Shown: positions 12,010-34,660, counted from the stretch's first letter. The stretch: DNA of 64,000 nucleotides from Kiritimatiellia bacterium (GCA_045595285.1 JAZOAC010000132.1:456-64455); one strand, 5' to 3'. Numbers and translations: made by a program. The notes: generated by a model from the letters alone, not told the origin.

Positions 12010-12910
12010 TTATCTTATCAGCACTTTAAACCCTGTTTCCTTGAACGTCACGGTCAATGTGGATGTGCCCGATCCGGCGTCATCAACAATATCCCGCGAC
12101 ATATGCACCGACACAAGCCCCTGCGGTTTCTTGATGTCTAGCTTGGCAAACACATCGTCTGCGATTTCCGATTTCACGGTCATCACCCCCATCGACAGAG
12201 CCTCCTTTGCACCGGTTGCACCGGACACCAACCGCACCGGAACTTTCGTCATGCCTCCGGCGAGCGACAGGGCAAGCGGCGAGGAAGTCCTGTCGTTTCT
12301 CAATCCGTATGTCTTGAGGGATGCATCATCTGTGTCCATATCAAGCTCAATTGCCACATCAACACCCGTTACGGAGTTGGAGAACACAAGATCAAGTCCA
12401 TTGAACGCATCGGCCGAAAGCGGTTTCAGGACACCGCCCTGAACATAGAGCGTGCGGTTGATGGCATCATCCGGCGGCAGATCCGCAAGCGCACCTTCCG
12501 CATCGAGAAACTTCAACTCGCCGCCCATGGCAAGCGTACCCGCCCCTTGCTTATAGACGCAGCCGTTTACGGTGACCGGCTGCAGAAGCGTCAGCGAATC
12601 TCCCGCTGCCGGCGTTTCAAGCTGAGCTATGCCGGAAAGGAACAACCCGCGGGTCCTATCGGTGAACTCAACCTTGTTTGTGGTGATGAGCCGCGGCATC
12701 TTCGCCCTTCCACCAGAATTTCACCTCGCCATAGCCGCCCTGCCTGTTCATCTGCAAGCGCGTCACCGTAGCCTTGCCGGAGGAAACCTTCATCACCGCC
12801 GCAACGATCTGGTTCGTCATTGCATATATGCCCGCATCAACTGTTGGATATACATTGCTTCCCATACCTCCGAGAATCCGCCGCGAGCCGCGCTCGACAA
12901 ACAGCTTCAC
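12010..12910 (-). pseudogene. 5'-truncated, frameshifted remnant of a large secreted beta-strand-repeat protein ending GFKVLIR
   Basis: 12010..12699 aligns with the C-terminal ~200 aa of 32195..34660 (RGL, KxGxGTL, ADxxxGL, YGxRNxxT, GVMTVxSxIA). 12668..12910 joins it through a frameshift near 12715. No signal peptide. Confidence 0.65.
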
Positions 12911-13093
12911 CCCGAATGCCGCCTACCCCATTGCATTCTTGCGTCCGCCCGATCACACCCATCCCGCCCTTCCAAATCCTCACTACCCAAACGATCAATC
13001 ACAGCAATCAATACCCCGCGCTTCTTCAACGATTCCTACCACCCATTTACCCGATAGGCGCGCCATCAAAAACCATTGCCGAAACACCCAGAT

Positions 13094-13135
13094 GTCATCA
13101 ATTCTCACAAATTATAATTTGTGAGAATTGATGAC
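13094..13135. repeat. Perfect 42-bp palindrome
   Basis: gtcatcaattctcacaaatta|taatttgtgagaattgatgac. Contains the TAA of the ArsR gene at its centre. Confidence 0.95.
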
Positions 13136-13684
13136 CGCAAATTTCAGGAATGCATTGGCGAACCTTTCTTCTTGGGGCACAGCCAAGACGGTTGCATTCA
13201 CCGATAATTTGGCAAAACCAAGGGCCGTCAATTCACCGACAATGCGGTAGCAGGTCTTTATCGGCATGAACGAGCGTTCCGCAAGGACTTCGACAGAAAT
13301 CTCGCCGTCTTTGTTCAGCACTGAAAGAATTGCCGTCTTACGGGCATTGGAGAATGCCGGCAAAACGGCAAGCACCCTATCCTTCCAAGCTGGCGCCTCT
13401 ATGATGCTCTCGAGCTCGTCGACAAGGCGCATAAACTCCCGAGCGCCGTCACGCCGCCGTTCATAGAATACATTCTTGCCGCGCCGCACCGCAACAATGA
13501 ACCCCTGCACATTGAGCATGCGCAGATATTGACTGGTGACCGATTCCTTCTCGTCAACGGCGGCACTTATGTCACTCACCGAAACAGGGTGACTGGAAAG
13601 CATCACCGTACGAAGCATCTCAAGGCGAATCGGATTGTCCAACGCTCGACTCACTCTCCATGGTATAGGTACATATTCTTGCAT
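13112..13684 (-). CDS. Tandem winged-HTH protein, ArsR-like
   Basis: ALDNPIRLEML...SQYLRML...GFIVAVRRGKNVFY, plus a second wHTH AFSNARKTAIL...ISVEVLAE. ATG at 13684. Confidence 0.8.
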   Translation of the reverse strand: MQEYVPIPWRVSRALDNPIRLEMLRTVMLSSHPVSVSDISAAVDEKESVTSQYLRMLNVQGFIVAVRRGKNVFYERRRDGAREFMRLVDELESIIEAPAWKDRVLAVLPAFSNARKTAILSVLNKDGEISVEVLAERSFMPIKTCYRIVGELTALGFAKLSVNATVLAVPQEERFANAFLKFAVINSHKL

Positions 13685-13720
13685 GAAAGAAATTAAACCA
13701 AAACACAGAACCAAACGCAA

Positions 13721-13758
13721 GCTCAATTCTCACAAATTATAATTTGTGAGAATTGAGC
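13721..13758. repeat. Perfect 38-bp palindrome sharing a 32-bp core with 13094-13135
   Basis: gctcaattctcacaaatta|taatttgtgagaattgagc. Confidence 0.95.
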
Positions 13759-14166
13759 ACAGAACGTGAGGGATGACCAGATCCCGAAAATGAGAATTCG
13801 ATTCGGAACAATTCTCTCGCTTCTAATGTAATGAGGCCGCGGGATGATGAGAATATGGTTTGGACTGATTCTCAAGATTACGGTTTCTGAGAGGATTAGC
13901 AAGATTACGGCTCGGACGAAATCTTATGTATCTCTAAAAAAAAAACGCTATTTCACAAAACCACCAGAATCACAAGCGAAATTACCACTCTTTTCAGGGT
14001 CCCACCCCAATTATTCGTTCCCGAATTTCAGGCGGAACGCAAGCGGTTCTTCTTCGGTCTTCCGGAAATCGGCGTCTGCATGTCTCGGACAGGGTGAAAT
14101 TGTCGAGAATGTCAGCGCCGAGCGGGACAAGAATCACCTGAATTGCACAAAAAGCCAACTTGAAAA

Positions 14167-15003: not shown

Positions 15004-15055
15004 AATCGCGCGTCCTTCTTTATGGTACACCGCAACCCGATTGCGTATCCTGGAA

Positions 15056-17167
15056 TCATCTTAACACGATTACGGTACCCTTCACATTGATCTTCTCCGG
15101 ATTTCCGACCGTTGAAAACCCAGGATCGCTCTGCATCGCATAATCGGCTGAAACCCAGGCGACATCCGATGGAGCGGCGCGCAGACGCATCTCATCCATC
15201 CAGCCCGGGAATGGGGTGTTGCTGGCGTCGCCCTTGCCCAGAAAAAGAGCGTTCGCAGTATTTGTGGGGGCATAGTTTGCCGATTTGATATGCGTTCCGT
15301 TGATGTACAGAGCCACCCCGCCACCGGAATAGGTTGCTGAAAGATAGACAAAATCATTTGTGCTGTCAAACGCCGTGTTGGCGCACTTCATCTGCTTATT
15401 GCCACTCGGGGTGTGGGTGGCCACATTATACGACAACGGCGATTCCATCAAGGTCAGCTCGAAACTCTGCGCCACGGAAAAGACCCGCGGATTCTTTTCC
15501 CCAAACGGCAAGGCCTTAACCCATGCAGACATTGTGAAGTTGCTTATGTCAAAGGTTTCGTGGTTGATGGGCGTAGTCTCGATATAGTCATAGTCCTGCC
15601 AACGAATTTCCGTACCGTCGCTTTTGTGCGTACCATCTCCGAAAAACGCCGTTCCAATCTTCCCCGGATCGGAAAGTCTGGGTCCCGCCCCGTTCACAGT
15701 TCCATCCATGCCCGCGCCCGACGAGTCCGCCGCCGATCCGGAGAAGTGCCATACGCCTATGTAATTTGCCTGAGACCAAACGGACGTCTCCGGAAGCGCC
15801 TGCGCCGCCGAAGCGTTCGGCCTATAGTACATCCACAGCGTAGATGGCGACGGGACGAACGCATCCAACCGCACCCATACGGTAGATTCGCCTTCCGGAT
15901 TCCAGCAATCAACCTCATGCGGTAGCACAAAGCCGTTATCATCCGTAAAACGCAGATCGTTTTCTGCATCGGCGCATTCGCTGTACACCGGCGAACCTTG
16001 CGGAATGCGTATCAGAACCGGAAACGAATAAAGAATCTTATCTACACCGCTGCCCTTGATTGAAACACTGCATCTGCGGCGGAAATTCTCGGCGTCAATC
16101 AACTGAGTCCTGTCTATGTCCTCCAATTCGCCGACATCGGCAAAATTCGGATCGTTCTGGGTTGCATAGTCAGCCGCCACCCAATCCGCGTTTGACGCAA
16201 CAAATCTCAGACGCATTTCATCCATATAGCCTCTAAAGGAAGAGGCGTATCTGTTTGGATAGCTGCCGAGCCTCAAATCGTTTTCCGACGGCGTCACAGA
16301 GAAACCAGAAGCCTCACGGCCTTCATACTCGCCATTCACATACAGGTCGCAGCCTCCATCCCGGAAGACAGCCGTCAAATAAACATAGTCCACGGTGCAG
16401 TACTTAGTTGTCTCCTTTTTATACTGTTCAGTGGCGCCGACCGCCGTATAGGTATTGGCATTCTTCACCTGCAATCCGAAGCCCGTTGTCTGATTAGACG
16501 GATCGTTTTTGTTGCAAAATACATATCGGGCCCCTTCAATAACCTGGATACCTGATTTAACCCATGCGGACAAAGTGAAATTAGTTCCGTTGAAATCCCC
16601 TGAGTTTATGACTCCGGTTTTGACGCAATCGTTGCCGTCTCCGTAAAATGCAGTGCCGACCTTGCCTCCCGCACTGAAGGACGGCTCGCCCACATTGGTC
16701 GACGCCATTGCGCTGGGCGAGGAGTCCGCCGCCGATCCGGAGAAGTGCCATACGCCGGCATAATTCGATTTGCCCCACACTTCGGTAGATTGTGCAGAAG
16801 ACTGTCCAATGCCGCCGACATACATCACTATTCTGGACGACGCGCCGCCAAGAACCGGTACGTTCACCCAGACCGTCGACTCACCGTCCAGATTCCATAC
16901 GTCAATCTCATGGGGTAGGAGATTCCCGGATGCATCGGCGAAGCAGATGTTTGCGGAATCGCCGGCCGTTGCGGAATGGATGGCCGAATCCGACGGTATG
17001 CGCAACAGAACCGGAAAATCACGAAGCTCCGAACCGCCCGTGTAGCCCGGAAACGTTACATTGCATTTCCAGCGGAACAGCGTCGTATCGACCTTCTCCG
17101 CCTGCGCCTGACGGCAGATTCCCACCGCCGCCAATGCCATGAACACAGCTGCCAATGTTTTCTTCAT
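15056..17167 (-). CDS. Secreted protein with two DUF2341 + LamG/concanavalin-like modules, ending GTVIVLR
   Basis: Signal peptide. FPVLxRIP...LPHExDxWNxxGESTVWV occurs twice, as do GVWHFSGSAADSS and GxMDEMRLR...WVxADYAxQ. Confidence 0.85.
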   Translation of the reverse strand: MKKTLAAVFMALAAVGICRQAQAEKVDTTLFRWKCNVTFPGYTGGSELRDFPVLLRIPSDSAIHSATAGDSANICFADASGNLLPHEIDVWNLDGESTVWVNVPVLGGASSRIVMYVGGIGQSSAQSTEVWGKSNYAGVWHFSGSAADSSPSAMASTNVGEPSFSAGGKVGTAFYGDGNDCVKTGVINSGDFNGTNFTLSAWVKSGIQVIEGARYVFCNKNDPSNQTTGFGLQVKNANTYTAVGATEQYKKETTKYCTVDYVYLTAVFRDGGCDLYVNGEYEGREASGFSVTPSENDLRLGSYPNRYASSFRGYMDEMRLRFVASNADWVAADYATQNDPNFADVGELEDIDRTQLIDAENFRRRCSVSIKGSGVDKILYSFPVLIRIPQGSPVYSECADAENDLRFTDDNGFVLPHEVDCWNPEGESTVWVRLDAFVPSPSTLWMYYRPNASAAQALPETSVWSQANYIGVWHFSGSAADSSGAGMDGTVNGAGPRLSDPGKIGTAFFGDGTHKSDGTEIRWQDYDYIETTPINHETFDISNFTMSAWVKALPFGEKNPRVFSVAQSFELTLMESPLSYNVATHTPSGNKQMKCANTAFDSTNDFVYLSATYSGGGVALYINGTHIKSANYAPTNTANALFLGKGDASNTPFPGWMDEMRLRAAPSDVAWVSADYAMQSDPGFSTVGNPEKINVKGTVIVLR

Positions 17168-17209
17168 AATGATTCTCCGTTTTCATCAGTTCAGGTTGAC
17201 GATAAATAC

Positions 17210-20200
17210 CTAGTTCGATGCATCTGAAGAGCTCACGAAAAGGGTCCCCCACGTCGACGGAGTGTGCGGGACGCCATTTTGCCACCCAAACGCCCCGCAT
17301 TTCGCGTTCCTGTCGGGGAGTCCAAGCGAAACCCTTTCGAAAAAACGGAGCTGCGGATTGACGTTCGGCTCAAACTGCAGGGATGAGAACGGAATGACGA
17401 CAATGGCGCGCCAGCCTTCCTGGGTCTTTTCGACACGGCTCTCCCACTTGCAGTCCTTGCTCCCATCCGAAACGACCGCTTTGTTGCGGGTGCCGTCCGC
17501 CGCCAGCATGAAGTGCCGGTAGGAAGCCCGGTCCGCCTCGAAAAACAGTTCTATGAAATCCCCAGTCGAGCAGGCGTTGCGGTCCGAAGTGGAATGCGTC
17601 ACGACGGGCAGTCCGCCCTTCTTCACGTCAATGCCGAGGACGAGTTCCCGTTCGTTCGCATAGATGCGCGTATTGACGCCGGCGGTTTCAGGGATGGCGG
17701 CAGGGCGTATGCGGGTGAAGCCCGTCAACGACGTACCCCGCGACCACGGCTTCCCGTGGAACATGTCGAAATGCGGCTTTTTCGGCGTACCCGTGAAACG
17801 GACGCGCGTTTCGACCTGTTTGTATTTGGGCGATTCGTCGATCCACATCTCAAGGATGCGCTGCATGGATGCAATCCATTTTCTACGCTCTTCGCAATCC
17901 GCTTTCGCAAAGGCCGCTTTCAGCGCTTCCCGGCACTTGTCGGATATTCCGTTCTGGACTATGTAGATCGATGCCATTCGGAACGGATTGTCGCAGAAGC
18001 CTGACGAGATGCTGTTGGAGTACCATGACCTGCGCACCTCGCCATAGAAACGCCCTACATCACCGGCGGCAGGGCCGAACGTACGCGAAAGGAATTCCCT
18101 GCGCAATGCCGCCGGGTCAAGGGACGGATTCCAGAAGAGCCGCTCGACAACCCAAGCCTCCATCGCATTCATGTCGTAGAATTCGGATCTGGGGCGCATT
18201 ACTCCCTTTGCATTGGCCCCCTGCATCACTTCGTCATCGGATTCGACAATAGGCGCATATACGTATTTCCCTCCTTTTTCAAGGAAGTAGCGCAGGTCGA
18301 CTGCGGCGGTGTCGGCCATCGGCCTGGGGAAGAACAGGTTTCCGCACCAGTAGTACTCCCTGAGTCCGATCTCCGCACCGCTTGCAAGCCAGCCGTCGAG
18401 CTTTTCCCTCCAGCGGCGATTGGTCGAACCTTCCACAAACGATTCGCGCATGTTACGCGGATAGGGGCAGAAGCGGACTATGATGTTCTTCTCGAGCTTG
18501 ATGCGCGGAGCGTCGGTAAGGTGGTAGTATCCGTGGACTATGGCCTTCGCGCCTGGACGGACCGCCGCCACGCGCCGGGCGACCTGGTTGTAGAACCGGA
18601 AAAAGCGCGTCGAACGGTAGGCCGGATCGCCAGCCTCAAGGAACGTTCCGTCATCCAGGCGTATCGGCTTCTGGCACTCGTCGCACTGGCATGTAAGCAC
18701 ACGGTCCTCTATCGTGATGTTTATCAGCTTGATGTCGCGCGGCACGGATGGCATCTTCCGTTCGACGGCATCGCAGAACGCCTTGACGAATCCAGGATTG
18801 CTTTCGCAGAAATTCATCTTCCCGCCCGTCCAGCGCTTGCCGTCGATCATCATGCGGTATTCCGGATGGTCGGGACATTCCGTCTTCGGGAACCACACCT
18901 TCTGCATGTTGTGTCCGCGGCCGCCGCCCCAGTAATCCTTGTGACATCCGATCATGCCGTACCGCACCGCAAGGGTGCGATGCTCCAGACGGGTGCCGCG
19001 ATCATGCAGCGACGTATCGCCGTTGCGCACCCTGTAGCGCCAGATTTCCGGCAGTTTCGAGCCCGAACCCAATGTCCGCCTGAGGAATGCGGGAATGTCC
19101 ACATACTCGTCCTGAAGTCCCTTCCATCCGTCCGGCGCCGGACGCTTCGTGTAGAAGCAAAGGTCGCCGCCGGGCCTTGGCCAAATGATATCGGTATGCC
19201 GCTCCAGCCACTTGTGGACACCATTGACGAGTCCCTTGGGATTTGCCGCAACAAAGTTCAGCACGCCGTCCCTCCATCTTACGGCATATCCGTCAGTCCC
19301 TTCCAGACGATTCCAGTCGGCGGCGAACAGACCATTCTCCGAAGGCAGCCGGAAACGGACGGGCGGAGCGGAACCGAAAACCTTCGTCGCAAAGTTGGTG
19401 AACTCCTCATGCGCCCATTCGACGGCCGGATGGCTCGACATAGGATAATCGAACGACCAGAACTTCTCGGGAGAGAGAAACACGTGCCCGACAATCCCCG
19501 TAATGTCGAACATCCAATCTTCAAGAAGGCCTTTCTCCGCCTTTTTGAATACGGCCTTCCAGAGTCCGGCATCGGCCCCCGCCTGCTCGATATGCCCCTT
19601 CCAGGCAAACACGGACGGACAGTTGTATACGCTCCGGCCCGTCGAGGAGACCAGCTCGACTCCTATGGCTTCGCTGCCGTCACCCGAAACAAAGAATCCG
19701 AACTCCGGCGCATATTCCGGAACGGAGAAATACAACTCTCCCTGAGAGCCGATGGCCGCACACCAGTCAGACGTAAGATCGGCAGCAATGGGAGCAGCGC
19801 ACTCAAGAAGCGACAGCTGCAGGCCGATGCGCCTTGAGTCAAGGAAATAGAAGCCCGCCCTGGGCGCATCGAACTTCAGCGTCTCCACGTCCTTCCCCGG
19901 CAAAGGGACGGAAGCAATAATCTTGCCGTCAACATCGGAAAATTCCACTTCCCCGGATACGGCGCGGGAATATCTGCCGATGGGATTTTGCCTCCACTTG
20001 AACTTTATGGTTCTGGCGCGATCGGCATAGAATACAAACCGCAACTGATGACGGAAACGGATTGGCGAGAGCTTGACCATCTCGCCAGGACGGGAGTCTG
20101 AAACCCTGGCCCGGGAGAAATCCGGAGCAGGCTTAACGGTCGGAACCTTATTCTTCGCCGAAAGGAACGGAAGGTTTCTGACAACCCATTCGTCATCAAC

Positions 20201-21346: not shown

Positions 21347-21381
21347 AGCTTTCGTCCTTTCTTCGCTTTAAATGGCTGTGA

Positions 21382-21408
21382 ATTATATTTGTTTTTTTTT
21401 TCTGTCAA
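21382..21408 (-). promoter_or_regulatory. Consensus sigma70 promoter TTGACA-N15-TATAAT with an A10 tract in the spacer
   Basis: tgtcaa at 21403-21408, attata at 21382-21387, and t x10 at 21392-21401. Confidence 0.7.
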
Positions 21409-21418
21409 ATCCGCGTTT

Positions 21419-23464: not shown

Positions 23465-23544
23465 GCTAAATATTGATTCTCTCGTATCCATTGTCTGCAA
23501 GGCTCCGAATCTACCGTTGACCGGTGACACTCCATTGAACTTCT

Positions 23545-23910
23545 CTAGAACTCACGGCGTTCGCTGTTTGCCGCGCAGGTATCAACATTCTCGACGATGA
23601 GGCAGCGTGTCCCGGGTTTCGTTACGATCTGATGCCATGTTCCCTTGTGGACATTGTAGATCTTGCCGACAGACATCTTCACTTTCTGACCGCTCTCCCC
23701 GATAAGAAGCGTTGCTTCACCGGCAAGAAGAACAAACACCTCGTCCGTCTCATTATGCCGCTCCATGTATGTCGGCGCGGTGAAGCGGTCTCCATGATTG
23801 AGGAACGCCACGCACCACCCGCCATCCTCAACCGCACGGATGTAATTGCCGCCGTCATACGAAACGACATCAAGTCCACATACCGGACTTTCTCTGCGAA
23901 TTTCTTTCAT
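23545..23910 (-). CDS. Cupin-fold protein
   Basis: ERHNETDEVFVLLAGEATL...YNVHKGTWHQI. Confidence 0.75.
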   Translation of the reverse strand: MKEIRRESPVCGLDVVSYDGGNYIRAVEDGGWCVAFLNHGDRFTAPTYMERHNETDEVFVLLAGEATLLIGESGQKVKMSVGKIYNVHKGTWHQIVTKPGTRCLIVENVDTCAANSERREF

Positions 23911-23982
23911 GGCGCGGATTGTATCAAAACGGCATTCCATTCCTCAACGGGTAGAGTACATTAAACAGGCAACAGTTTTTAC

Positions 23983-25170: not shown

Positions 25171-25227
25171 ACCGCACAGGTAACACACCTGCACGCCGAA
25201 CATTCCACGGAAACAAGCGGAGACGGC

Positions 25228-26697
25228 TCAGACGTTAAGCTGCGCCGAATCGCGTTCGACCCGGGATTCGTCGAGATCAAGTTTTGAAACATCGACATCG
25301 ACAATGCCCAGAGGTTTCGCCTTGCGCCATCCGCCCTTGGTGAAATCCGGAATGTCGCATGAACCGGAGCGGCCGCGTACCGACCTGTCGGAAAGTTCGG
25401 CGATGCAGCACCAGCTCGCCAGATCATACACGTCCATATCCATGGGAAGTCCGTTCTGCAGACAGTACGCCCACCTCAGATCCATGAGGAAGTCCATGCC
25501 GCCATGCCCGCCGACCTTCCTGGCGATCTCGCCGACGGATTTCCAAAGCGGATGCCTGTAGGCTGCCGCAATCTCCGCCGTACGCCTTTCATCAAAAAAC
25601 CTGTGAAGTCCCGCCCCTGGCCGCTCCTCCCATCCGAATCTTGTCATGCCCGGATCGTCGCCGTATGTGCGCCACGGCATGCCGTGGAATATCCCCTTCG
25701 TTCCCGTGACCATGTTTATGCGCGAATACGGACGCGGGCTGGATATGTCGTGCTGGAGCATTATCGAACAGCCGTTCACGGTGCGGATGAGCGTGGTGTT
25801 CATGTCTCCCATGGCGACTTTCGCGTCAGCCTTCCACGTTCCGGGGAAAGCATGTTTCGCATAGGCGCGAAAGTTGGCCTGACGCGACTCGAGAGACACG
25901 AGATAGTCGAAACGGTCTCCGCGATTGATGTTCATGTACTGGCAGACCGGACCAAGCCCATGAGTGGTGTACTGATTGCCTTTATGCCTCTGATTCCAGC
26001 GCAGGCGCCAATAGTCCCAGCACCCCTTGACCCCGTCCGGTTCCTGGTCGTAATAACTGCTGACGCGAAGATCGTGGATGTACGCGCATTCACCATGGAC
26101 GATCTCGCCCAGCAATCCCTGCCGGCAGAGATTGAGGCCCAGCATCTCCATCTCGCCGTAGCAGCAGTTCTCGAGCTGCATGCAGTGAAGGCGCGTACGC
26201 TCTGCCGTTTCGACAAGTTCCCAGCACTCGTCGATCGTCATCGCCGCCGGAACTTCAATGAACGCATGCTTGCCGCAGTTCATCGCAAAAACCCCGATCG
26301 GAGCGTGCAGAGACCAGGGAGTCACATTGTAGACGCAGTCGATGCCGTCGTACCGGCACATGTCTTTCCAGGAATCCTCCCTTCCTGAAAACATCTTCGG
26401 CAGCGGCCTGCCGTTATCCTTAAGCCATTTGGCTTCGGCCTCGACCCGCACCCGACGGATGTCGCACAGCGCGGCGACTTCAACCCCGGGAATCATGGAT
26501 ATGCGATGGACGGCAGACGTTCCACGGCTCCCCAAACCGACCACCCCGACGCGCACCCTCTTCAGCGGAGCCGCCGCAAAACCCTGCATGGCTCCGCCGT
26601 CGCCGCCGAATCTGACCGCATTGGCGCATCCGCCCGCCATCGCCGCCGCGCCCATCCATGCAGTTCCCTTGATGAAGTCTCTTCTGTTCATGCTCAT
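25228..26697 (-). CDS. GH109 NAD-dependent alpha-N-acetylgalactosaminidase-like protein (Gfo/Idh/MocA), Tat signal
   Basis: NRRDFIK; VGVVGLGSRG; EVPAAMT; MQLENCCY; YTTHGLGPV; GGHGGMDF; DMDVYDLASW. Confidence 0.88.
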   Translation of the reverse strand: MSMNRRDFIKGTAWMGAAAMAGGCANAVRFGGDGGAMQGFAAAPLKRVRVGVVGLGSRGTSAVHRISMIPGVEVAALCDIRRVRVEAEAKWLKDNGRPLPKMFSGREDSWKDMCRYDGIDCVYNVTPWSLHAPIGVFAMNCGKHAFIEVPAAMTIDECWELVETAERTRLHCMQLENCCYGEMEMLGLNLCRQGLLGEIVHGECAYIHDLRVSSYYDQEPDGVKGCWDYWRLRWNQRHKGNQYTTHGLGPVCQYMNINRGDRFDYLVSLESRQANFRAYAKHAFPGTWKADAKVAMGDMNTTLIRTVNGCSIMLQHDISSPRPYSRINMVTGTKGIFHGMPWRTYGDDPGMTRFGWEERPGAGLHRFFDERRTAEIAAAYRHPLWKSVGEIARKVGGHGGMDFLMDLRWAYCLQNGLPMDMDVYDLASWCCIAELSDRSVRGRSGSCDIPDFTKGGWRKAKPLGIVDVDVSKLDLDESRVERDSAQLNV

Positions 26698-26751
26698 CGG
26701 ATATCTCCTTTCAATCGATTCCTGAAAACGGCACCGTCCGCCCGGAACTCC

Positions 26752-28803
26752 CTATCTGCGGATCCTTAACACCTTCACGCCGTAGCACGGCCATTCGCAG
26801 GGAATGCGGACAACGCCGTCCTCGAACGAGAAGCCGACCTCGCCCCATCCGCCGTCCGGATTCATCACCTCCACCGAAGCAGGTCTTGCGTTGCGCCGGA
26901 TCAGCAGTTCATCCTCCGTGTCATAGTTGAGGTTCCCGAAGAGGAGAATGTCCGAACCGTCCGCCGCATTGCGGCTCAGCGCGAGCACGTTCTGCGCGTT
27001 CATGCACACGTTCTCGAGCGGTGCGCCGTTAAGTTCGTCAAGCACATCGTTAAGGTATTGCCGACGCGCCTCGGAATAGAGCCATCCATACTTAATCCCA
27101 AGGTGAAAGGACATCACCGCCACCGTTCCGCCGAGCGCATTTCTGAACAGCACGGCCGCATCGGCCACCCGCTCCACGCTTTTGGACATTGAGCTCTCGC
27201 GCCATATCGCAGACCCAAGAACCTTCGCGCCGGGCAACGCCTCGAACAGCGGCGGATCGGAACTTTTGGGCAACTGAAGGATGTCGCCGTTCATCTCGCT
27301 GCGCTCCCCCGTGAAGAGTTTGACGCCGCACAGCTTCACCCCGATTTCAGGCCCAAAGCCCCTCGCAATGAGTTCGCGGGCCGCCAATCCGTCTATCAGC
27401 ACCTTTTTGGAGAGCATCCGCCTGAGATCGGCATCACTGGAATTGATGACGCAGTTTGTCCCCCCCAACGCATATATGCCGTCAACGGCAAAATCCTCCG
27501 TCGCCCGGTAAGGGATTCCGTACCAGCTGAACATCTTCTGCGCCCACCCGTCCTGGTCGAACGTGTCGCGGAACCCCGCGCCCGCCACGCCGAATCTGGG
27601 ATAATCCCGATGGCATGGGATCAGCAGACCGGCAAGCGACGTTCCGCGGACGGCTGCGGAAAGCGAAGGATAGAACCCTCTGTGGCGCTCAAGAATCCCG
27701 GTATAGTGACGGCTGACCGGATATCTGCCCTTGTGGGCGTTCACAAGCCAGAGCTTCGCCCCCTTCAAGCCGATGAAGGCGCTCATCGACAGCTTGGCGT
27801 GGAACGCAACGGACGACTTCGCCCACAGATTGTGCGGCCAGGTGTCCGCCTCGTCAAGAAGGAGAAGCCCCGTACCCTTCAGCCGCTCCGCGCTTGCCAT
27901 TGTCCGCAGCGCGAGTTCGCCCATTGTCTCTTTCGGCGCAGATTCATAGTACTGTCCGTTCGCAAGGCGCGCCCACGCCGTATGCCTCGGCCCCGCCATC
28001 GTGCGCGCATACTCCGCGATGTAGCGGCGCGCCCACGCCGCACCCGGCTCGCACACGCCGGACGGGATCGAGGGATCGACGGAATCTATGCCTTCGCGCA
28101 AGAGCCGGCATATGCCCTTCACCGTATCGCGCTGAAGCTCCGCGAACGCCATGTGCTCCGCGCTCTTCCTGTCCGCCTTCGCGAGAAGATCGCGCAGGCC
28201 CTCCGGCGTGAGGCGCTTCCCCGTCCTGCGGTTGTACTCGGCCGTGTGCAGCGGACACGTGCATTCCGCCAGCGGCGAAAACGCACGGACGTCGTCATCG
28301 CTGAGTATGAGCGCGGGACGGCATTCAGCAAGTTTGCGCGCCGTTTCCCGGATGTAGGCCCGATAGCCGGGATCGAGAGGGCAGAAGCGGGTGACGGTCC
28401 CCTTCCAGTTGACGGCCCTCTGCCAAGGCTCGGTTTCCTTCTCCGCCAGATCGCTCGTCCAATGTCCGACGACGGACTGCAGAAGAATCGCAGGCTTCAC
28501 CACGCTTCCTTCGAGAAGCTCGGCCCATCTGCGGTAGCTTGCAACCCCGGCCTCCACGGTCTTCATGGCCGGACGCCCCTGAGGATGCAGCGTAAGCGAA
28601 TAAAGGCAGTATGGATTCCCCGTCCGCTCCGCAAACTCCCTTGCATCCGCCGCCGCAACTTCCTCCCTGCCGGGGCTGGACGGTATGATGTTCAACATCG
28701 AGAACGAGTCCTCGGTTATCACCTCACGGAATCCGGTCGTCGCGGCAAGCGAAACCGTGACAATGGACATTGCAAAAGAAAGGAAACATGTTGACTTAAT
28801 CAT
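26752..28803 (-). CDS. Secreted hypothetical GH-like protein (TIM barrel + class I GATase-like domain)
   Basis: Signal peptide. FCPLDP...LILSDDD...DEADT...KVLIDG. Confidence 0.55.
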   Translation of the reverse strand: MIKSTCFLSFAMSIVTVSLAATTGFREVITEDSFSMLNIIPSSPGREEVAAADAREFAERTGNPYCLYSLTLHPQGRPAMKTVEAGVASYRRWAELLEGSVVKPAILLQSVVGHWTSDLAEKETEPWQRAVNWKGTVTRFCPLDPGYRAYIRETARKLAECRPALILSDDDVRAFSPLAECTCPLHTAEYNRRTGKRLTPEGLRDLLAKADRKSAEHMAFAELQRDTVKGICRLLREGIDSVDPSIPSGVCEPGAAWARRYIAEYARTMAGPRHTAWARLANGQYYESAPKETMGELALRTMASAERLKGTGLLLLDEADTWPHNLWAKSSVAFHAKLSMSAFIGLKGAKLWLVNAHKGRYPVSRHYTGILERHRGFYPSLSAAVRGTSLAGLLIPCHRDYPRFGVAGAGFRDTFDQDGWAQKMFSWYGIPYRATEDFAVDGIYALGGTNCVINSSDADLRRMLSKKVLIDGLAARELIARGFGPEIGVKLCGVKLFTGERSEMNGDILQLPKSSDPPLFEALPGAKVLGSAIWRESSMSKSVERVADAAVLFRNALGGTVAVMSFHLGIKYGWLYSEARRQYLNDVLDELNGAPLENVCMNAQNVLALSRNAADGSDILLFGNLNYDTEDELLIRRNARPASVEVMNPDGGWGEVGFSFEDGVVRIPCEWPCYGVKVLRIRR

Positions 28804-28855
28804 CGGAACCCCATTCCTTTTCCGGCACGCGCGGCGCCGACGCCATGCATGGCGA

Positions 28856-31360
28856 TCAATACCTCAAAAACGTGAAATGCCTCGCGTCCCACGGATCCAT
28901 CTTCGGCTTGGGGCCATACGACGGATACCGCTTCGCGTTGAGGACGTTCAGCACACGACGGGCAAAATGCGACAGTTCCATACGATCCCCGCAGAAAACC
29001 TCAAGCTCTCCGATCCTGACGCCAAGCCGGGCGAACTCCCGGTTCTCCGCAATGCCGACAGCCGGACCGGACTTCTCGCCATCCTTTTTGCCGGCGGACC
29101 TGAAGAAAAAGCGGAACCTTTCGGCGATCTCCCGAGAATCCGCATCCGCCGAATGCTCCACGGCAAGTTTTGAAAGGTCCGAAAGGCAAAGTCTGCCGAT
29201 AGCGTCCGCCGCAGCCGCAAGGGAAGCGTCGCGATATGCAAGACGCACGGTCTCGCCGCCCTTGAAATCAAGCGCCGCCGGACCGGAGAGGCGGTATCCC
29301 TCTATCGCATCCCTGCAGACGACCTTTCCGCGGAATCCGCCGGACTTCAGCATGAGGGTCATTCTTCCGCAGCCATCCCCCTCCCATGACGCCGAGAGCA
29401 TTCCTTCGCCATCGACAGTCGCCACGGCCTCAAGCACGTTCGCGAGCAGGGCTCCGGCGGAAACGGACACCCGCATGCGTCCGTCGCCGAACGTGCTGTC
29501 GGCGGCGCCGCCGTAGAACGGCACGTAGAGGAAACCCTTGGCATCGGACTTCGCCCCGACAAGTCCGGTGGCGATTTCGTCCGGATACATGTCCATCACG
29601 ATCTTCCGCGTGAGATTCGTCAGGTTGCACACGGCGATGAACGATCTGTCGCCAAGCCCGTACCGGGCCAGCTCGCATTCACCGCATTCCGGTTTCGCGC
29701 CGATGACGGGCTTCCATCCCGCCGCGTTCAGGCGCACGAACGCATGCGACATTTTGGCGACATATTCGCTCGTGTAGCGCACCGGAAGCGATGCGCAGGC
29801 CGCAAGCGACCTGTGCACGGCAAAACGGCCGAGGTCGTTCTTGAGCATGTCCAGCCGCCCCGCCGGCCACTTCGCATAGTTCGGATCGAAGCTTTTCGGC
29901 GAATAGCCCTCCCACAGGGTAAGCGCCTTCTCGCCCAGGGCGAGTCTGCTGTGCATCGGGAACGGCAGCTGATGGTCCCACGGTGTCGTCTCGTGCATGA
30001 CGGTATCCGCGTACAGCATATCGCTGACATGCTGATACCTCGTATTCACGGCAGCACCGGCGCATCCGGGAAGTCTGCTATTCTTTAGAGTGTGCAGATA
30101 TTCGAATATCTTTGCGTTCGCCACTCCTCGGACTACGCCAGGTCCGAATTCATCCCAGCTGACGTTCTTCATCGCCTTGAGGCGTTCGCCGCGATAGACG
30201 CTTCTTGCGCTGGCCACGTCGAACGCCATGCCGCCAAGATCCCATCTCGGCATCAATTCGGCAAGCTGGCGGCGCAGCTCGACGCCCCAGGAGCATTCCG
30301 GGAACGCAAACACCTCTGTCGTGTAGTGGTAGGCGCTCAACCCGAATCCGTTGACGGTGGCATGGGAATCAGGATGCGGCGCGGCATGCTTCTTCGAGAT
30401 GTTCGCCAATGTCATCGTGTAGAATCCGTTCGCGACGCCGCAATAGTACCCGTTGGAGAAACGCGAACCCTGAATCCTGTCGAAGCGCTCCCTCGATATC
30501 TTCGCGCTGGCGACCTTGCGTATCTTGCCGCCGTTGCGGTTGTGGTATTTCAGGTCCACCCACTTGTAGTCCACCGAATTCTTCCCGGAGGGGTTCACGG
30601 AATTGAGAAGGTCTCCCCATGTGCGGTCCGCCCCGTAGCACCACTCCCACGTCGCGTTCATGAAACGGCACATGTCTGGATTCGGAGACTGCCAGCTGGC
30701 ATACTCCGCGCATATTCCGTAGTATCCGGGATACACATCGGGATTCTTGAAGAACCGCTCCGGATACAGTCGGTAGTAGCGGGCGTAGGCCTCGCGTATG
30801 CCGTACTTCGGGCTGAACGGAACGCGGTGGAAGCTGCAGACATATTCGGAGCCCTTCCCCGTCAATGTCGCATGCACCGATATCGAACGCATGTCGCCAT
30901 CGAGGATGCCGTCCACGTACGAGTTGAAATCCTCAGCTCCGGCGGCGAGCGCCACGCCGGCGCTTTCATTCCAGGAGGCCACCATGAGGAACCTGAAGTT
31001 CATGTACAGCGGAACCGAGATCCTCCTTCCCGACGGCTTGACCTCATCCTTTCCGTCCCACAGCACCGTCGCGCCCTTGAATTCGTCCGAGGCGACGATC
31101 CGCAGCATCTGGATTCGGTCGCACAGCGACACGACGCGGCAGCGTATGGTCTCCGCTCCGCAGACATCCTGCATGCGCTCCACCGTCAGCTCGACCTGAC
31201 CGTCCTGCCGGTACGGCGTGCCGTCCCGGTTCTGCAGAACAACGTCAAACGCCCTCGCCGACGACACCGCGAACAGCACGCTTGCCAACAGCAGACTTTT
31301 CATCATCGTTTCCTTCATCTTTCTTCTCTCCTTGATTCCCCGGTTGCCGTCCGACCTCAA
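28856..31360 (-). CDS. Secreted hypothetical GH-like protein
   Basis: Signal peptide from MKETMMKSLLLASV (ATG 31318). Aromatic-rich, with GGMAFDV. Confidence 0.55.
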   Translation of the reverse strand: MRSDGNRGIKERRKMKETMMKSLLLASVLFAVSSARAFDVVLQNRDGTPYRQDGQVELTVERMQDVCGAETIRCRVVSLCDRIQMLRIVASDEFKGATVLWDGKDEVKPSGRRISVPLYMNFRFLMVASWNESAGVALAAGAEDFNSYVDGILDGDMRSISVHATLTGKGSEYVCSFHRVPFSPKYGIREAYARYYRLYPERFFKNPDVYPGYYGICAEYASWQSPNPDMCRFMNATWEWCYGADRTWGDLLNSVNPSGKNSVDYKWVDLKYHNRNGGKIRKVASAKISRERFDRIQGSRFSNGYYCGVANGFYTMTLANISKKHAAPHPDSHATVNGFGLSAYHYTTEVFAFPECSWGVELRRQLAELMPRWDLGGMAFDVASARSVYRGERLKAMKNVSWDEFGPGVVRGVANAKIFEYLHTLKNSRLPGCAGAAVNTRYQHVSDMLYADTVMHETTPWDHQLPFPMHSRLALGEKALTLWEGYSPKSFDPNYAKWPAGRLDMLKNDLGRFAVHRSLAACASLPVRYTSEYVAKMSHAFVRLNAAGWKPVIGAKPECGECELARYGLGDRSFIAVCNLTNLTRKIVMDMYPDEIATGLVGAKSDAKGFLYVPFYGGAADSTFGDGRMRVSVSAGALLANVLEAVATVDGEGMLSASWEGDGCGRMTLMLKSGGFRGKVVCRDAIEGYRLSGPAALDFKGGETVRLAYRDASLAAAADAIGRLCLSDLSKLAVEHSADADSREIAERFRFFFRSAGKKDGEKSGPAVGIAENREFARLGVRIGELEVFCGDRMELSHFARRVLNVLNAKRYPSYGPKPKMDPWDARHFTFLRY

Positions 31361-32175
31361 TGGGTCAGCGATGCGCCCTCCTGAGGCGCGTAGACTCCGT
31401 CCATCATGCCGTCGGCATAGGTGACGGACAGCATGCTGCCATCAACGCGCTTGGTATTGTCGAATCCCCTCAACGCATCGGAGTCGGCGATTATTTCGCT
31501 ATACTCCGCCACGGGATCGGCAAAGCGCCTTTCCCACTGCAGATCCCGCAGCCCCACAAGTTCAAGCGCCAGCCGCTTCACCGGCGCGCCCTTGTGCTCA
31601 GCCACGAGCGGTATCCGGTCCATCTCCGTTATGTCTATCAGGAATGGATGCGCGATCTCCACCGACCCTGTCGACATGAATACGCCGAATTTGAACTGCA
31701 CCTTCCCGACAAGCTCCTCGGTCACGTCTATCGGGCGGTACAGAATACTCCACCTGTCTCCGCCGCCGCCAAGCTGCGCCTTTATCTCCGGCCTGAGATA
31801 CCCGTCGAGGCAGCTGTTGAAACCGCCAAGAAGATATACCCTATTGTTGTAAGGCTTGTCCTTTTTCGTACGTCCATAGCTCCACAGCAGCACAGGCGCC
31901 TTGTCCCGCCTGACCCATGCGCCGTAAAGATAGCGGTGCCCGGTCTTAAGCGACACTTCCTGCCGCCAGAACGCCGACAGTGGCACACGGGACGTGATCT
32001 TCCATACCGGCTCCTCGGCCGTGAACGGTCCGCCCTTCGACTTCTCCCATGTGAAGCCTCTGCGGTCGGAATTATCCACTCTGTTTTCCCATTTCCTGTC
32101 CTTGAACAGGTTCGCCTCCGTCTTCAGCACAGACGGATACAGCAGCGCCGCCAGCAACAACCAACTCATGATCAT
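31357..32175 (-). CDS. Secreted hypothetical protein (CBM-like beta sandwich)
   Basis: Signal peptide. WRQEVSLKTGHRYLYGAWVR. Confidence 0.55.
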   Translation of the reverse strand: MIMSWLLLAALLYPSVLKTEANLFKDRKWENRVDNSDRRGFTWEKSKGGPFTAEEPVWKITSRVPLSAFWRQEVSLKTGHRYLYGAWVRRDKAPVLLWSYGRTKKDKPYNNRVYLLGGFNSCLDGYLRPEIKAQLGGGGDRWSILYRPIDVTEELVGKVQFKFGVFMSTGSVEIAHPFLIDITEMDRIPLVAEHKGAPVKRLALELVGLRDLQWERRFADPVAEYSEIIADSDALRGFDNTKRVDGSMLSVTYADGMMDGVYAPQEGASLTH

Positions 32176-32194
32176 TTCCTTTCTGTTTTCCGTG

Positions 32195-34660
32195 TTATCG
32201 GATTATCACTTTTGTCCCATGATTGACGCCGATCTCCAGGGCGAAAGTCGTCCAACCGTTCACCTCATCGGAAATCTCAACCTTCCTCACGATCTTTTCG
32301 TCGATGCGACGCGGCATCTCCGGCAGTATGGCCTTGATCCGGGCGGCGATCGCACTGCGGACCGTCATAACGCCAAGAACCGCTCCTTCTTCCGGAATCG
32401 ACTGCGGATACAGAATTTCAAGCGGAAGGGTGGCAGACCCGGCAGGAAGGACGAACGGTGTATCCGTTTTCACGTTCCTGACTCCATAGCGCAGAGAATC
32501 GGCATCGAATGACGTTGCGTCGATGACAAACTTCGCCGAACTGCCGAAACGTATCTCAAGTCCGTCGATGCAGTCCGCCCCGCGCACCTTGAGCGTGCCT
32601 TCCGCAATGTTCAGGATGTTCGAATTCACCGACGGCATGTCACTTACGGCCCCCTCTCCGAATTTAACCGGAGCGGCAAGAGTGAGCGTACCGACTCCCT
32701 CCTTATTCAGTGTTCCGTTCATCGTAAGCAGGGTCTCCACCGCGAACTCCTTTCCGGAAATTACGAAAATTCGCCCCAGAAACGCCGTGCCTTCCACATC
32801 AGAGGTACTGTCGATGTAAAGTCCCCTGTTTGTGCCCTTGGCGAGTGCGGCATTCCCGGAGACATGTATCCGGCACATTCTTTTGAGGGTAATTCCATCC
32901 CATGCCATTTCGGAAATCACACCTCCAAGCTGATTGGTCGCGGCTACACTCAGCGTCTGCATATTAGTCGCGGTCGGGACATTTCCTTTGTAATTCACCT
33001 GCGATACAGAGAATCTGCCTTTGAACGCCGAATTATCCCCTGTAAATCTCGTAAACCCCTGCGGTGAAGAAGTTGCGCTGACACCTGGAATTGTTATCGT
33101 CGCCTCACCCGACAGATCGCCGGAAAACTCCGCCGTATATCCTGTGTATACACCGACCTGCACCGACCCCGATGGAGCAGCCAGCCTTTCGCCCTCTATT
33201 TTGACTATCCCGTCTTTCTCGGTGGAGAACTGCCCCAAGCGTACGCACGCACCATCCAGAAGACGCAGTTCCTTTACCTTGAAAAGCGACTGATACAACG
33301 TAAGCACGCACCCAGGACCTATCGTAAGCGACTCTCCCGGGAAATGACGCATTTCATACGCTACAGTTGCATTAGCACGCCCAGCGCCCATCGTATTCAG
33401 GTAACGGATGGCATCTCCGTTTTTCAGGACGACATAATGCGCCCCTTCGTGCGGAAGCTGCTTGTCCGACCAATGACTCTCATTGTCGTCCGCAAAAGAC
33501 GTTGTGGCCCTGCTGCAGGCTGTCTGTTCACTGTTGTCGGATATCACAAGACTCACGACAGGCTCAAACGTAAACACGAGCGAATCCCTGTCTTCTCCGC
33601 GTTCGACCTCAAGCTTGGCAAGGCGGCGCATATCCTCAGGGTATGTGCCCATATCTAAATCAAGGACGAAATCATCAACGTCCAGTTCAGCGGACTTTGG
33701 AGCCGTCAATACCACAAAGCGGTTTGTGAGTCCGTCAAACGCGATGTCCGACATTGAAAGCTTCACCTTCACCAATCCTTCTGTTGAAAGACTGTCTGTC
33801 ACATGGATCGTCGCGCCTGAAGCGTGCTCAACCCCATTGGCATCGACCGTCTTGGCTATCGTCACCCTGATTGCCGCATTTGTGTCGAGTGACAGCGTTG
33901 AAAGCGTCCAGTCGTCTGTCGCCGAAGCGGCGAATATCGTGCCGTTTGTCCCGACGGTCACTTTGGCCTGGGAAACGCCGCTCATGCCCAAGCTACTGTT
34001 ATACTCGCAAGCGACCGTACCTTTATATTGTGAAGCGTCAAGGAATCTGGCGGTGACTCTTTGAATCGAGAACTTGGATGACTCATCACCGACCAATGGC
34101 CCGTGGAAATTGACGACCTGATTAGTCAAGGTGCCATTCCGGGTTACACGGAAGGTTCCTTTGCCTGACCCGTCGGCAAGAACGGTAACCTTGCCATATA
34201 TCTCATAGTTGGCGTTGTTGTCGTTTAACAGCGTTATGCTTCCATAGCGAAGAAACAACCCGTCATTTGCAAATGTGGTTTTAATATTCTTCGCTGAAAG
34301 ATAAAGAATACCGTCGCCGTTGCTCCAGTAGTCATCGCCAATGGTTAAAGATCGTCCCGCAAAGACAATATCCCCCGTTTTGGAAGTGCGTATAACCTTG
34401 GAATATGTCTCTCCCCTATCTGGATACTTCCAGCTGACAAGATAATCGGCAGTGGAATCAAGCGTCGAGCTCTCTGCACATTGGCTGCCGGATTCATCCA
34501 GCCAATACACCGCATTCGTCAACGCGCCGCCCAAGGCAGTATTGCCGGATGCCGACAATCTGTAGACCGTAGGAACCGGCTCCTCCGCGCACAATGGCGA
34601 ATGTGCCGCAAAGGCAGCCAGACCCACCGCAATCAGGAAACGTTCAAGCATTGTTTTCAT
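32195..34660 (-). CDS. Secreted beta-strand-repeat (autotransporter-passenger-like) protein ending GTKVIIR
   Basis: Signal peptide. Two repeats of FAGRSLTIG/FPGESLTIG and KEGVGTLTL. No beta-barrel domain. Confidence 0.75.
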   Translation of the reverse strand: MKTMLERFLIAVGLAAFAAHSPLCAEEPVPTVYRLSASGNTALGGALTNAVYWLDESGSQCAESSTLDSTADYLVSWKYPDRGETYSKVIRTSKTGDIVFAGRSLTIGDDYWSNGDGILYLSAKNIKTTFANDGLFLRYGSITLLNDNNANYEIYGKVTVLADGSGKGTFRVTRNGTLTNQVVNFHGPLVGDESSKFSIQRVTARFLDASQYKGTVACEYNSSLGMSGVSQAKVTVGTNGTIFAASATDDWTLSTLSLDTNAAIRVTIAKTVDANGVEHASGATIHVTDSLSTEGLVKVKLSMSDIAFDGLTNRFVVLTAPKSAELDVDDFVLDLDMGTYPEDMRRLAKLEVERGEDRDSLVFTFEPVVSLVISDNSEQTACSRATTSFADDNESHWSDKQLPHEGAHYVVLKNGDAIRYLNTMGAGRANATVAYEMRHFPGESLTIGPGCVLTLYQSLFKVKELRLLDGACVRLGQFSTEKDGIVKIEGERLAAPSGSVQVGVYTGYTAEFSGDLSGEATITIPGVSATSSPQGFTRFTGDNSAFKGRFSVSQVNYKGNVPTATNMQTLSVAATNQLGGVISEMAWDGITLKRMCRIHVSGNAALAKGTNRGLYIDSTSDVEGTAFLGRIFVISGKEFAVETLLTMNGTLNKEGVGTLTLAAPVKFGEGAVSDMPSVNSNILNIAEGTLKVRGADCIDGLEIRFGSSAKFVIDATSFDADSLRYGVRNVKTDTPFVLPAGSATLPLEILYPQSIPEEGAVLGVMTVRSAIAARIKAILPEMPRRIDEKIVRKVEISDEVNGWTTFALEIGVNHGTKVIIR

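Follow-up and report, generated by a model that had tools for sequence, protein, structure and literature searches.

About 5% of the proteins of an uncultured gut Kiritimatiellae bacterium end in the same free seven-residue tail, a Gly followed by five mostly hydrophobic residues and an Arg. The carriers are mostly large exported proteins of sugar-binding or sugar-cutting types and belong to about 80 unrelated families. The tail looks like an undescribed address or docking label, whose reader we did not identify.

We first examined three minus-strand ORFs in a 64,000-nucleotide stretch of the genome (the window; positions count from its first letter). The first-pass annotation had pointed out that three proteins here share a C-terminal heptapeptide, G-x-x, three hydrophobic residues and R-stop, and this observation is confirmed. 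The ORF at 12010-12699 ends in GFKVLIR (encoded at 12013-12033, stop at 12010-12012). It is a 3' remnant (229 aa, no signal peptide) of a gene for a beta-helix/PATR-type exoprotein resembling the third protein (30% identity, E 3e-19), with a full-length 791-aa relative, P0251. The ORF at 15056-17167 encodes a secreted protein of 703 aa, with a signal peptide and two DUF2341 + LamG units, ending in GTVIVLR (15059-15079). About 85% of its 109 database homologues end in the tag, and G697 and R703 are nearly invariant. The ORF at 32195-34660 encodes a secreted 821-aa protein with a signal peptide, no Pfam domain and a weak PATR-repeat hit, ending in GTKVIIR (32198-32218); all eight homologue sequences that we read end in tag variants. 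Across divergent homologues the tag is conserved while the preceding linker varies. The DUF2341/LamG protein shows no similarity to the 821-aa protein, supporting the earlier claim that the motif is not simply paralogy.

The genes between the second and third ORFs (17210-31360) are untagged and belong to the same polysaccharide-utilisation-type locus. They lie on the minus strand, except for the regulator, and encode a beta-helix/DUF4838 protein with an N-terminal 'NGKPYAGNPHVRFD' leader (17210-21346), a DUF6259 protein (21419-23530), a XylR/AraC-type regulator (23983-25170, plus strand), a Tat-exported GH109 (25228-26697) and two secreted proteins with no Pfam hit (26752-28803 and 28856-31360).

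Enrichment of the motif among signal-peptide proteins had been set in advance as a condition on which the idea would stand or fall. Thus, we searched the whole genome (3.82 Mb) with the pattern proposed at that time, G..[VILF]{3}[RK]$. It hits 59 ORFs, that is 55 of 2953 non-overlapping genes, whereas 0.42 are expected from 164 internal occurrences, a more than 100-fold enrichment at C-termini. An iterated position matrix selected 143 genes, with about 1.5 false positives expected, and yielded the consensus [P/K]-x-G-[FLTM]-x-[IV]-[IVS]-[VIFL]-[R>K,H,Q]-stop. Gly occupies position -7 in 122 of 143 genes, Arg position -1 in 113 of 143, and hydrophobic residues positions -6, -4 and -2 in at least 95%. 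The genes fall into 80 BLAST families, 55 of them singletons, including LamG, DUF1565 beta-helix, PATR, BspA-LRR, polysaccharide-lyase-like and FGE-like proteins. Signal-peptide-like N-termini occur in 94 of 143, compared with 27% genome-wide (Fisher p 1e-22, with a crude detector). Terminal Arg codons are mixed (AGG 28, CGT 21, AGA 20 and others), as are stop codons (TGA 74, TAA 45, TAG 24), indicating that the repeat lies in the protein and not in the DNA. Counting the motif as a DNA pattern gave a signal to noise of only about 2 and was abandoned.

A match to an already defined sorting model was the other outcome declared beforehand as fatal to the idea. None of 110 tails matched any NCBIfam model at E<=1, and the three window proteins match no sorting-signal model in Pfam or NCBIfam, including the PEP-CTERM models (PF07589/TIGR02595) and the T9SS C-terminal domain (CTD) models (PF18962/TIGR04183/TIGR04131). 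Likewise, our literature searches found no description of this tag. PEP-CTERM and the other tripartite signals (LPXTG, GlyGly-CTERM, PGF-CTERM, MYXO-CTERM; PMC1569441, PMC3237569) are also lineage-restricted and also sit at the extreme C-terminus of many unrelated exported proteins of one genome. They span about 25-35 residues, with a signature motif (PEP in PEP-CTERM), a transmembrane helix of about 20 residues and an Arg/Lys cluster. In contrast, the tag has seven to nine residues, at most five consecutive hydrophobic residues and a single terminal basic residue.

The genome is nevertheless not free of the PEP-CTERM system. It encodes one exosortase-EpsI fusion protein (547 aa, with a C-terminal extra domain), and a PF07589 scan found one true PEP-CTERM protein (contig coordinates C69:679-1269), which our non-overlapping gene set lacks and which is not a tagged protein. 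Homologues in other lineages carry known sorting signals at the position of the tag: one (P0050) ends in a PEP-CTERM, and another (P0097) has a T9SS CTD. PEP-CTERM counts are 0-7 per genome in this family but reach 103 elsewhere in the phylum, where the signal also sits on proteins of 700-3000 aa. We therefore considered whether the tag is a miniaturised PEP-CTERM, its P-x-G, short hydrophobic run and Arg still cleaved by the exosortase. This is very unlikely, as five hydrophobic residues cannot span a membrane, there is no PEP motif or basic cluster, and PF07589 detects the true substrate but none of the tagged tails. An exosortase occurs in 35 of 36 phylum genomes, tagged or not, so that its co-occurrence with the tag speaks neither way.

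Genuine tags were found only in this order of Kiritimatiellae. A tag HMM was run across 251 phylum genomes, with low sensitivity (it recovers 30 of the 143 genes in this genome), and all seven hits checked outside the order were internal matches rather than termini. The distribution also rests on small genome samples: in 100-kb samples of relatives, tag density (about 1 per 100 kb or less) is too low for presence/absence calls. Within these limits the tag is lineage-restricted.

Tag positions -9 to -2 fit the published outer-membrane protein (OMP) beta-signal consensus, zeta-x-G-x-x-[arom/hyd]-x-[arom/hyd], read by the BAM complex (PMC10945584). The two share a C-terminal location, the Gly, alternating hydrophobic residues and a presumed beta-strand docking mode. 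However, in the tag one extra residue follows (Arg in 79%; R, K, H or Q in 137 of 143), and the hydrophobic residues are aliphatic rather than aromatic. Bona fide OMPs of this genome (BamA, FadL, a TonB-dependent receptor, DUF481, DUF2490) end in F, Y or W, never in R. The window itself offers a contrast, an outer-membrane beta-barrel candidate (41925-42791, minus strand, 288 aa) ending in a canonical beta-signal, ...GMGMSLSF. The carriers of the tag are LamG, beta-helix, PATR, LRR and FGE-fold proteins rather than barrels, and neither AlphaFold (AF2) model contains a barrel.

These similarities raise the possibility that the tag is a beta-signal mimic read by BamA/BamD, engaging BamA strand 1, with the terminal Arg preventing barrel-type release and so tethering or handing over non-barrel proteins at the outer membrane. 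BamA is present, some homologues and a few genes in this genome end in Y, F or W instead of R (GTIIIIY, GTVIFGW, GLIISFF), and lectin-like bacteriocins deliver a C-terminal beta-signal mimic to BamA (bioRxiv 10.64898/2026.09.25.754295). We consider this reading unlikely, since about 140 strand-only ligands on the essential BamA gate should be toxic, as darobactin and Llp peptides are. An extra Omp85/TpsB paralogue as reader also found no support: a jackhmmer search of this genome, which is 86% complete, returned BamA only. The barrel candidate at 41925-42791 was likewise considered as reader and rejected. Its protein family is restricted to this taxonomic family and its distribution parallels tag-rich genera, but the gene sits beside regulators like a substrate porin, and the family was not detected in two tag-bearing genomes (G007 and G134).

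We next examined the predicted structure of the tail. In the AF2 model of the DUF2341/LamG protein (pLDDT 87), residues 693-703 are low-confidence coil directly after the LamG body. Likewise, in an unrelated protein, a natural fusion of an FGE-like protein, a short module and the tag (g1165), residues 508-543 are low-pLDDT coil after a confident body. AF2 coil is weak evidence for a seven-residue tail, and the undocked tail of the fusion is only a weak negative against the FGE-like protein as a receptor in cis. Reading through the stop between a tagged gene and its FGE-like neighbour, as a stand-in for a complex, was precluded by extra stops and a signal peptide in the linker. Many tails are preceded by a short strand plus a P-x-G turn and could form a hairpin, so that the tail might be only a convergent structural cap stabilising beta-rich domains, or a neutral lineage habit. 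This is the least likely reading, as the same tail follows unrelated folds and disordered linkers, AF2 does not pack it, it is concentrated on signal-peptide proteins, and it swaps with true sorting signals in homologues.

A precedent for such a tail is the 12-residue C-terminal plug of PilC/PilY1 of type IVa pili, about 1% of a very large secreted protein, which is disordered in monomer models and docks by beta-augmentation of a partner (Denic et al. 2026, bioRxiv 10.64898/2026.09.18.752573). The plug belongs to one protein family and one partner, the minor pilin PilK, whereas here one tail is shared by about 80 families; Pfam reported no PilY1 domain in the carriers, and docking on a minor pilin was not modelled.

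By analogy, the tag could be a type II secretion (T2SS) signal, docking onto the pseudopilus tip (a GspK/PilK-like minor pseudopilin), a GspC-type PDZ domain or a SurA-like chaperone, after which the cargo is pushed through a secretin. The genome has two GspF genes, a GspK, a GspG-like gene, a 1074-aa protein with a GspK-like N-terminus (no Pfam hit) and five secretin-family genes. A SurA-like gene is translationally coupled to the pseudopilin operon, and no autotransporter barrel is present for the PATR proteins. Yet no linear T2SS signal is known anywhere, T2SS is widespread in the phylum whereas the tag was found in one order only, and inner-membrane-anchored anti-sigma factors carry the tag and cannot be secreted. 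Moreover, of ten pilin-motif hits about eight are true pilin-like genes, and none lies within two genes of a tagged gene. This rival is unlikely, though it ranks above the others.

Tagged genes do not cluster with any secretion genes. Neighbourhood enrichment around all of them revealed only regulators, FGE-like genes and metallophosphoesterases. The FGE-like association is new here: about 16 operons pair a small tagged protein with FGE-fold (PorK/GldK-like) genes, and the same module is fused to FGE-like proteins and to anti-sigma factors. Of 34 assessable FGE-like genes, 22 have a tagged small protein or a tagged (anti-)sigma fusion as the first upstream gene. The pairing is conserved in four genera, and the fusion occurs in 21 of the 120 database homologues listed.

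FGE-fold proteins (PorK/GldK relatives) are linked with the T9SS of Bacteroidota, whose CTD is also shared by dozens of large glycan-active exoproteins and, in a homologue of the DUF2341/LamG protein, occupies the place of the tag. The CTD, however, is a folded beta-sandwich of 70-100 residues, whereas the tag is a linear heptapeptide. The FGE-like proteins form a 37-member family with signal-peptidase-I-type leaders (from inspection of N-termini), not ring lipoproteins, and hit GldK/GldJ only far below cut-off. A search for SprA with TIGR04189 found nothing here but was equally silent in every control genome, and so gives no information on whether T9SS machinery exists in this genome.

The tag sits on one anti-sigma factor and one sigma-TM fusion, whose activation normally starts with C-terminal proteolysis. 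It could thus be a handle for a periplasmic protease or processing enzyme (a Prc/CtpA/DegS-type PDZ protease, or a sortase-like transpeptidase cutting at the Gly), serving turnover, maturation, covalent attachment or site-1 cleavage of the tagged anti-sigma factors. The requirement for a free C-terminus and the near-invariant Gly with Pro two residues before it, resembling a cleavage or attachment site, agree with this. No candidate enzyme was examined, and we regard this reading as unlikely, because known PDZ proteases prefer a hydrophobic last residue and a degron on 5% of the proteome, including the main glycan-handling proteins, is hard to rationalise. A parallel for the anti-sigma link is dockerin-cohesin assembly and the RsgI-type sensors of cellulosomal clostridia, where many glycan-active proteins share a C-terminal docking module and anti-sigma factors carry the same kind of extracytoplasmic module as the enzymes. 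Dockerins, however, are Ca-binding folds of about 70 residues in Gram-positive bacteria, and we found no cohesin-like receptor here.

Together, we favor the view, with a probability of roughly 0.55, that the heptapeptide is a modular C-terminal address or docking tag, [P/K]-x-G-Phi-x-Phi-(Phi/S)-Phi-[R>K/H/Q]-COOH. In this view the protein is exported through Sec, for which signal peptides are the only evidence, and the tag hangs as a flexible tail behind whatever folded domain precedes it, as AF2 predicts. The remaining steps are inferred: the tail would become a beta-strand by pairing with the edge strand of an envelope receptor, with the free carboxylate and the terminal Arg as specificity handles, thus routing or retaining glycan-binding and glycan-degrading exoproteins, FGE-fold proteins and the sensor ends of anti-sigma factors at one common site, most likely at or beyond the outer membrane. 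Anti-sigma fusions would have to span the periplasm if that site lies beyond the outer membrane. In this lineage the tag takes the place that PEP-CTERM holds on large surface proteins elsewhere in the phylum. The tag can be supplied in cis, as the last residues of about 120 large proteins, and it also occurs on a short disordered module, here called STM, which is fused to FGE-like proteins or to anti-sigma factors, or is made as a secreted protein of roughly 60 residues encoded directly upstream of FGE-like genes. What the sequence analysis establishes is the terminal position, the enrichment, the breadth of families and the link to signal peptides; no receptor, protease or translocon was identified, and nothing shows where the proteins end up or whether the tail is kept. 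The earlier interpretation, a terminal beta-strand recognised by a dedicated export or anchoring system, is therefore partly supported: it survived both tests named for it, and the recognition step is inference.

A more far-reaching reading, which we hold only tentatively, is that gut and rumen Kiritimatiellae run an undescribed envelope-sorting system. In it, a linear 7-9-residue tag, the beta-signal consensus capped by one Arg, would replace PEP-CTERM as the address label for more than 100 exoproteins per genome. The tag could be lent to untagged FGE-fold proteins through a small disordered adaptor module, and it would also sit on the outer end of anti-sigma factors, so that occupancy of the reader could be coupled to transcription of the polysaccharide-utilisation loci.

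All described bacterial C-terminal sorting signals are either tripartite membrane-anchored peptides cut by a sortase-like enzyme, or folded domains (the T9SS CTD). A free heptapeptide carried by about 5% of a proteome would be a third design, from a phylum whose protein export is almost unstudied. It gives a sequence rule for predicting the surface or secreted glycan-handling proteome of abundant, uncultured herbivore-gut bacteria, and a concrete peptide with which to fish for the receptor. The near-identity to the BAM beta-signal raises the question of how a cell keeps about 140 beta-signal look-alikes from jamming BamA. The link to FGE-fold (PorK/GldK-like) proteins and to anti-sigma factors suggests that the tag is wired into sensing as well as sorting.

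We first examined the three minus-strand ORFs at 12010-12699, 15056-17167 and 32195-34660, whose products (P0001, P0002 and P0003) end in GFKVLIR, GTVIVLR and GTKVIIR, respectively. P0002 has a signal peptide and two DUF2341 + LamG units, whereas P0003 has a signal peptide, no Pfam domain and only a weak hit to the autotransporter-associated repeat. P0002 and P0003 share no detectable similarity. P0001 is 30% identical to the last 210 residues of P0003 and corresponds to the C-terminal part of P0251, a database relative of 791 aa, indicating that it is a 3' gene remnant, as the first-pass annotation implied. The remnant is cut off (12700-13760) next to the double-wHTH (ArsR/IclR-like) gene at 13112-13726. 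A separate first-pass annotation describes this gene as bracketed by long palindromes, so the truncation may be linked to that insertion. The shared terminus that the first-pass annotation noticed is confirmed, and it extends far beyond the window.

We next asked whether the termini recur more often than expected by chance in the 3.82-Mb, 184-contig, 55% GC assembly that contains the window (C132:456-64455; C denotes contigs). The regular expression suggested by the first-pass annotation, G..[VILF]{3}[RK]$, hits 59 ORFs of at least 80 aa, that is 55 of 2953 non-overlapping genes, whereas only 0.42 hits are expected from the 164 internal occurrences. Likewise, IVR, VVR, IIR and ILR are the four commonest C-terminal tripeptides of the genome. 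An iterated 10-column position matrix, thresholded at the 99.95th percentile of internal windows, selected 143 genes with about 1.5 false positives expected. Among these, G occurs at position -7 in 122, F, L, T or M at -6 in 136, I, V, L, F or M at -4 in 142, I, S, V or T at -3 in 124, and V, I, F or L at -2 in 136. The last residue is R in 113, K in 13, H in 8 and Q in 3, and P occurs at -9 in 38. There are two flavours of the tag, G-h-x-h-h-h-R and G-L-I-I-S-F-[H/R]. The median carrier is 757 aa, and 116 carriers are at least 400 aa. Arg and stop codons are mixed, indicating that selection acts on the peptide; a reading in which the tail has no function was ranked as the least likely of all. 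The carriers fall into 80 BLAST families, 55 of them singletons, whose representatives carry DUF1565 beta-helix, BspA-type LRR, PATR, LamG and polysaccharide-lyase-like domains, or nothing known.

Lack of enrichment among secreted proteins had been put forward in advance as grounds for rejecting a sorting signal. In contrast, a crude detector finds signal peptides in 94 of the 143 tagged genes, against 27% of all genes (p 1e-22). Most misses are contig-edge truncations, leaders that the detector skipped, or a special N-terminal leader. Fifteen exported proteins, encoded at 17210-21346 (-) in the window and by 14 other genes of the genome (e.g. C12:27853-30132, C94:416-3070, C152:3478-4755), start with a conserved leader placed before the hydrophobic signal segment, 'M..REA(L/I)NGKPYAGNPHVRFDEGE...RRGSLLY'. 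Six of them also carry the C-terminal tag. This leader may be a specialised N-terminal targeting or regulatory extension. A match to an already defined sorting model was the other outcome named beforehand as counting against the idea. Pfam and NCBIfam give no sorting-signal hit for the three proteins, and none of 110 twenty-residue tails hits any NCBIfam model at E<=1. A full-text literature search found no paper describing such a tag.

We then compared the ends of homologous proteins. Of 109 database homologues of P0002, about 85% end in the tag, and G697 and R703 are nearly invariant over 25-92% identity, while the linker before them varies. Distant members of the same family end instead in a PEP-CTERM (P0050) or carry a T9SS CTD (P0097, PF18962), and Fibrobacterota-type relatives simply stop after the LamG domain. 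All eight P0003 homologue sequences that we read end in tag variants. Together these results show that the tag sits where sorting signals sit. That it is instead a handle for a protease or processing enzyme is doubtful in our ranking.

The genome does have the exosortase system, represented by one exosortase with an extra C-terminal domain (C113:23567-25210, 167 bits) and one true PEP-CTERM protein (C69:679-1269), the latter missed by a regular-expression search. The exosortase ORF is about 540-590 aa, with the extra C-terminal domain, in most genomes of this order, but about 325-345 aa in many other members of the class. Exosortase occurs in 35 of 36 sampled genomes of the phylum. PEP-CTERM domains number 0-7 in the twelve genomes of this family, where the PEP-CTERM proteins are small (about 170-300 aa). 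In contrast, they reach 103 elsewhere in the phylum, where they also end 700-3000-aa proteins. The tag thus occupies the niche of PEP-CTERM on large exoproteins. We consider it very unlikely that the tag is itself a miniature PEP-CTERM.

To examine how widely the tag is distributed, we searched with an HMM of the tail. It recovered 30 tags in this genome and 3-5 in genomes of the same genus and a sister genus, always at the ends of 600-2300-aa frames. Direct reading of DNA shows genuine tags in four further genera or families of the same order, for example ..PPMGLTIIIR, ..PRGGTLLIVR, ..PPKGTMISFK, ..GGTLLMMR and ..GGTLLFYQ. All seven HMM hits checked in other families and classes were internal matches. 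The tag is therefore lineage-restricted as far as this sampling reaches, although the method is insensitive. Source names for close homologues read Kiritimatiellae or Lentisphaerae MAGs.

Many tails are preceded by a short strand and a P-x-G turn. AF2 with a 35-sequence alignment models P0002 at pLDDT 87, with residues 693-703 as coil and the last blocks scoring 72 and 51. Likewise, AF2 of an FGE-like protein with a C-terminal tag models the body at pLDDT above 90, whereas residues 508-543 score below 50 and are coil. The tail is thus predicted to be free. The plug of PilC/PilY1 behaves the same way before it docks on PilK by beta-augmentation (bioRxiv 10.64898/2026.09.18.752573).

The published beta-signal consensus zeta-x-G-x-x-[aromatic/hydrophobic]-x-[aromatic/hydrophobic] (PMC10945584) fits tag positions -9 to -2, and the tag adds one residue, mostly Arg. 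The real barrels of the genome, which include BamA, FadL, a TonB-dependent receptor, and DUF481, DUF2490 and OMP_b-brl proteins, end canonically in F, Y or W. A few tagged homologues end in Y, F or W instead of R. Only one Omp85 protein and no autotransporter barrel were found in the genome. A mimic directed to BAM is possible in our ranking but unlikely.

We searched for the protein that reads the tag. Nothing in the neighbourhoods of tagged genes points to a machine. Candidates present in the genome are T2SS/T4P parts, five secretins, a SurA-like gene coupled to a pseudopilin operon, BamA, the exosortase-EpsI fusion and a family-restricted OMP family, but none is supported beyond plausibility. 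The five secretin-family genes lie on C57, C76, C71, C35 and C120, in contexts that suggest T2SS/T4P, Tad and possibly a T3SS-like system. The SurA-like chaperone gene (C131:6041-7000) overlaps by 4 nt the last gene of the pseudopilin operon, which includes a 1074-aa protein with a GspK-like N-terminus and no Pfam hit. The OMP family is represented in the window by a 288-aa outer-membrane-type protein without a Pfam hit (41925-42791, -). It has 6 copies in this genome and was detected in 11 of 12 genomes of this family and almost nowhere else in the phylum sample. It usually sits beside a LacI/XylR-type regulator, and is possibly a substrate-specific porin. Targeting to the T2SS is the leading alternative, although still an unlikely one. 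The recurrence of the terminus, its enrichment and its association with signal peptides are results of the analysis, whereas its role as an address that docks as a strand is inferred; we rank this reading first, with a probability of roughly 0.55. The interpretation of the first-pass annotation, a sorting signal recognised by a dedicated export or anchoring system, is supported in part, as it withstands both of the objections specified for it but lacks a reader protein.

We also found an adaptor module and FGE-fold partners of the tag, which are new here. The genome has 37 paralogues built as signal peptide + Ig-like N-domain + FGE-sulfatase fold, which match PF03781 with E 1e-20 to 1e-36 and hit PvdO and PorK/GldK only far below cut-off. 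Secreted FGE-fold proteins in an anaerobe are unlikely to be O2-dependent formylglycine enzymes. For 22 of the 34 assessable paralogues, the first upstream same-strand gene that is not itself a paralogue is tagged, whereas chance per gene is 4.8%. This gene encodes either a small secreted protein of 87-285 aa, an anti-sigma factor (C160:3228-4034; zf-HC2-type N-terminus, from sequence inspection) or a sigma-TM fusion (C158:3743-5107). The latter two each continue in frame through what looks like a relic signal peptide, run into a module of the small tagged secreted proteins and end with the tag, and each lies directly upstream of an FGE-like gene. In about 16 operons (e.g. C140:50218-51923, C181:4113-5754, C110:5902-10316) a small tagged secreted protein is followed by 1-3 genes for these FGE-fold proteins, and the pairing recurs in four genera. 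Furthermore, one paralogue of this genome (C81:11844-13475), and 21 of the 120 database homologues listed for it, carry the roughly 60-residue module (FW...F-D-S-R-F...) plus tag fused to their own C-terminus. That the FGE-like protein does not itself read the tag is only weakly tested, by the AF2 model of the tagged FGE-like protein. The tag is thus delivered in cis, or on a small separate protein, or on a sensor, which argues that it addresses a third party and is not read by the FGE-like protein itself.
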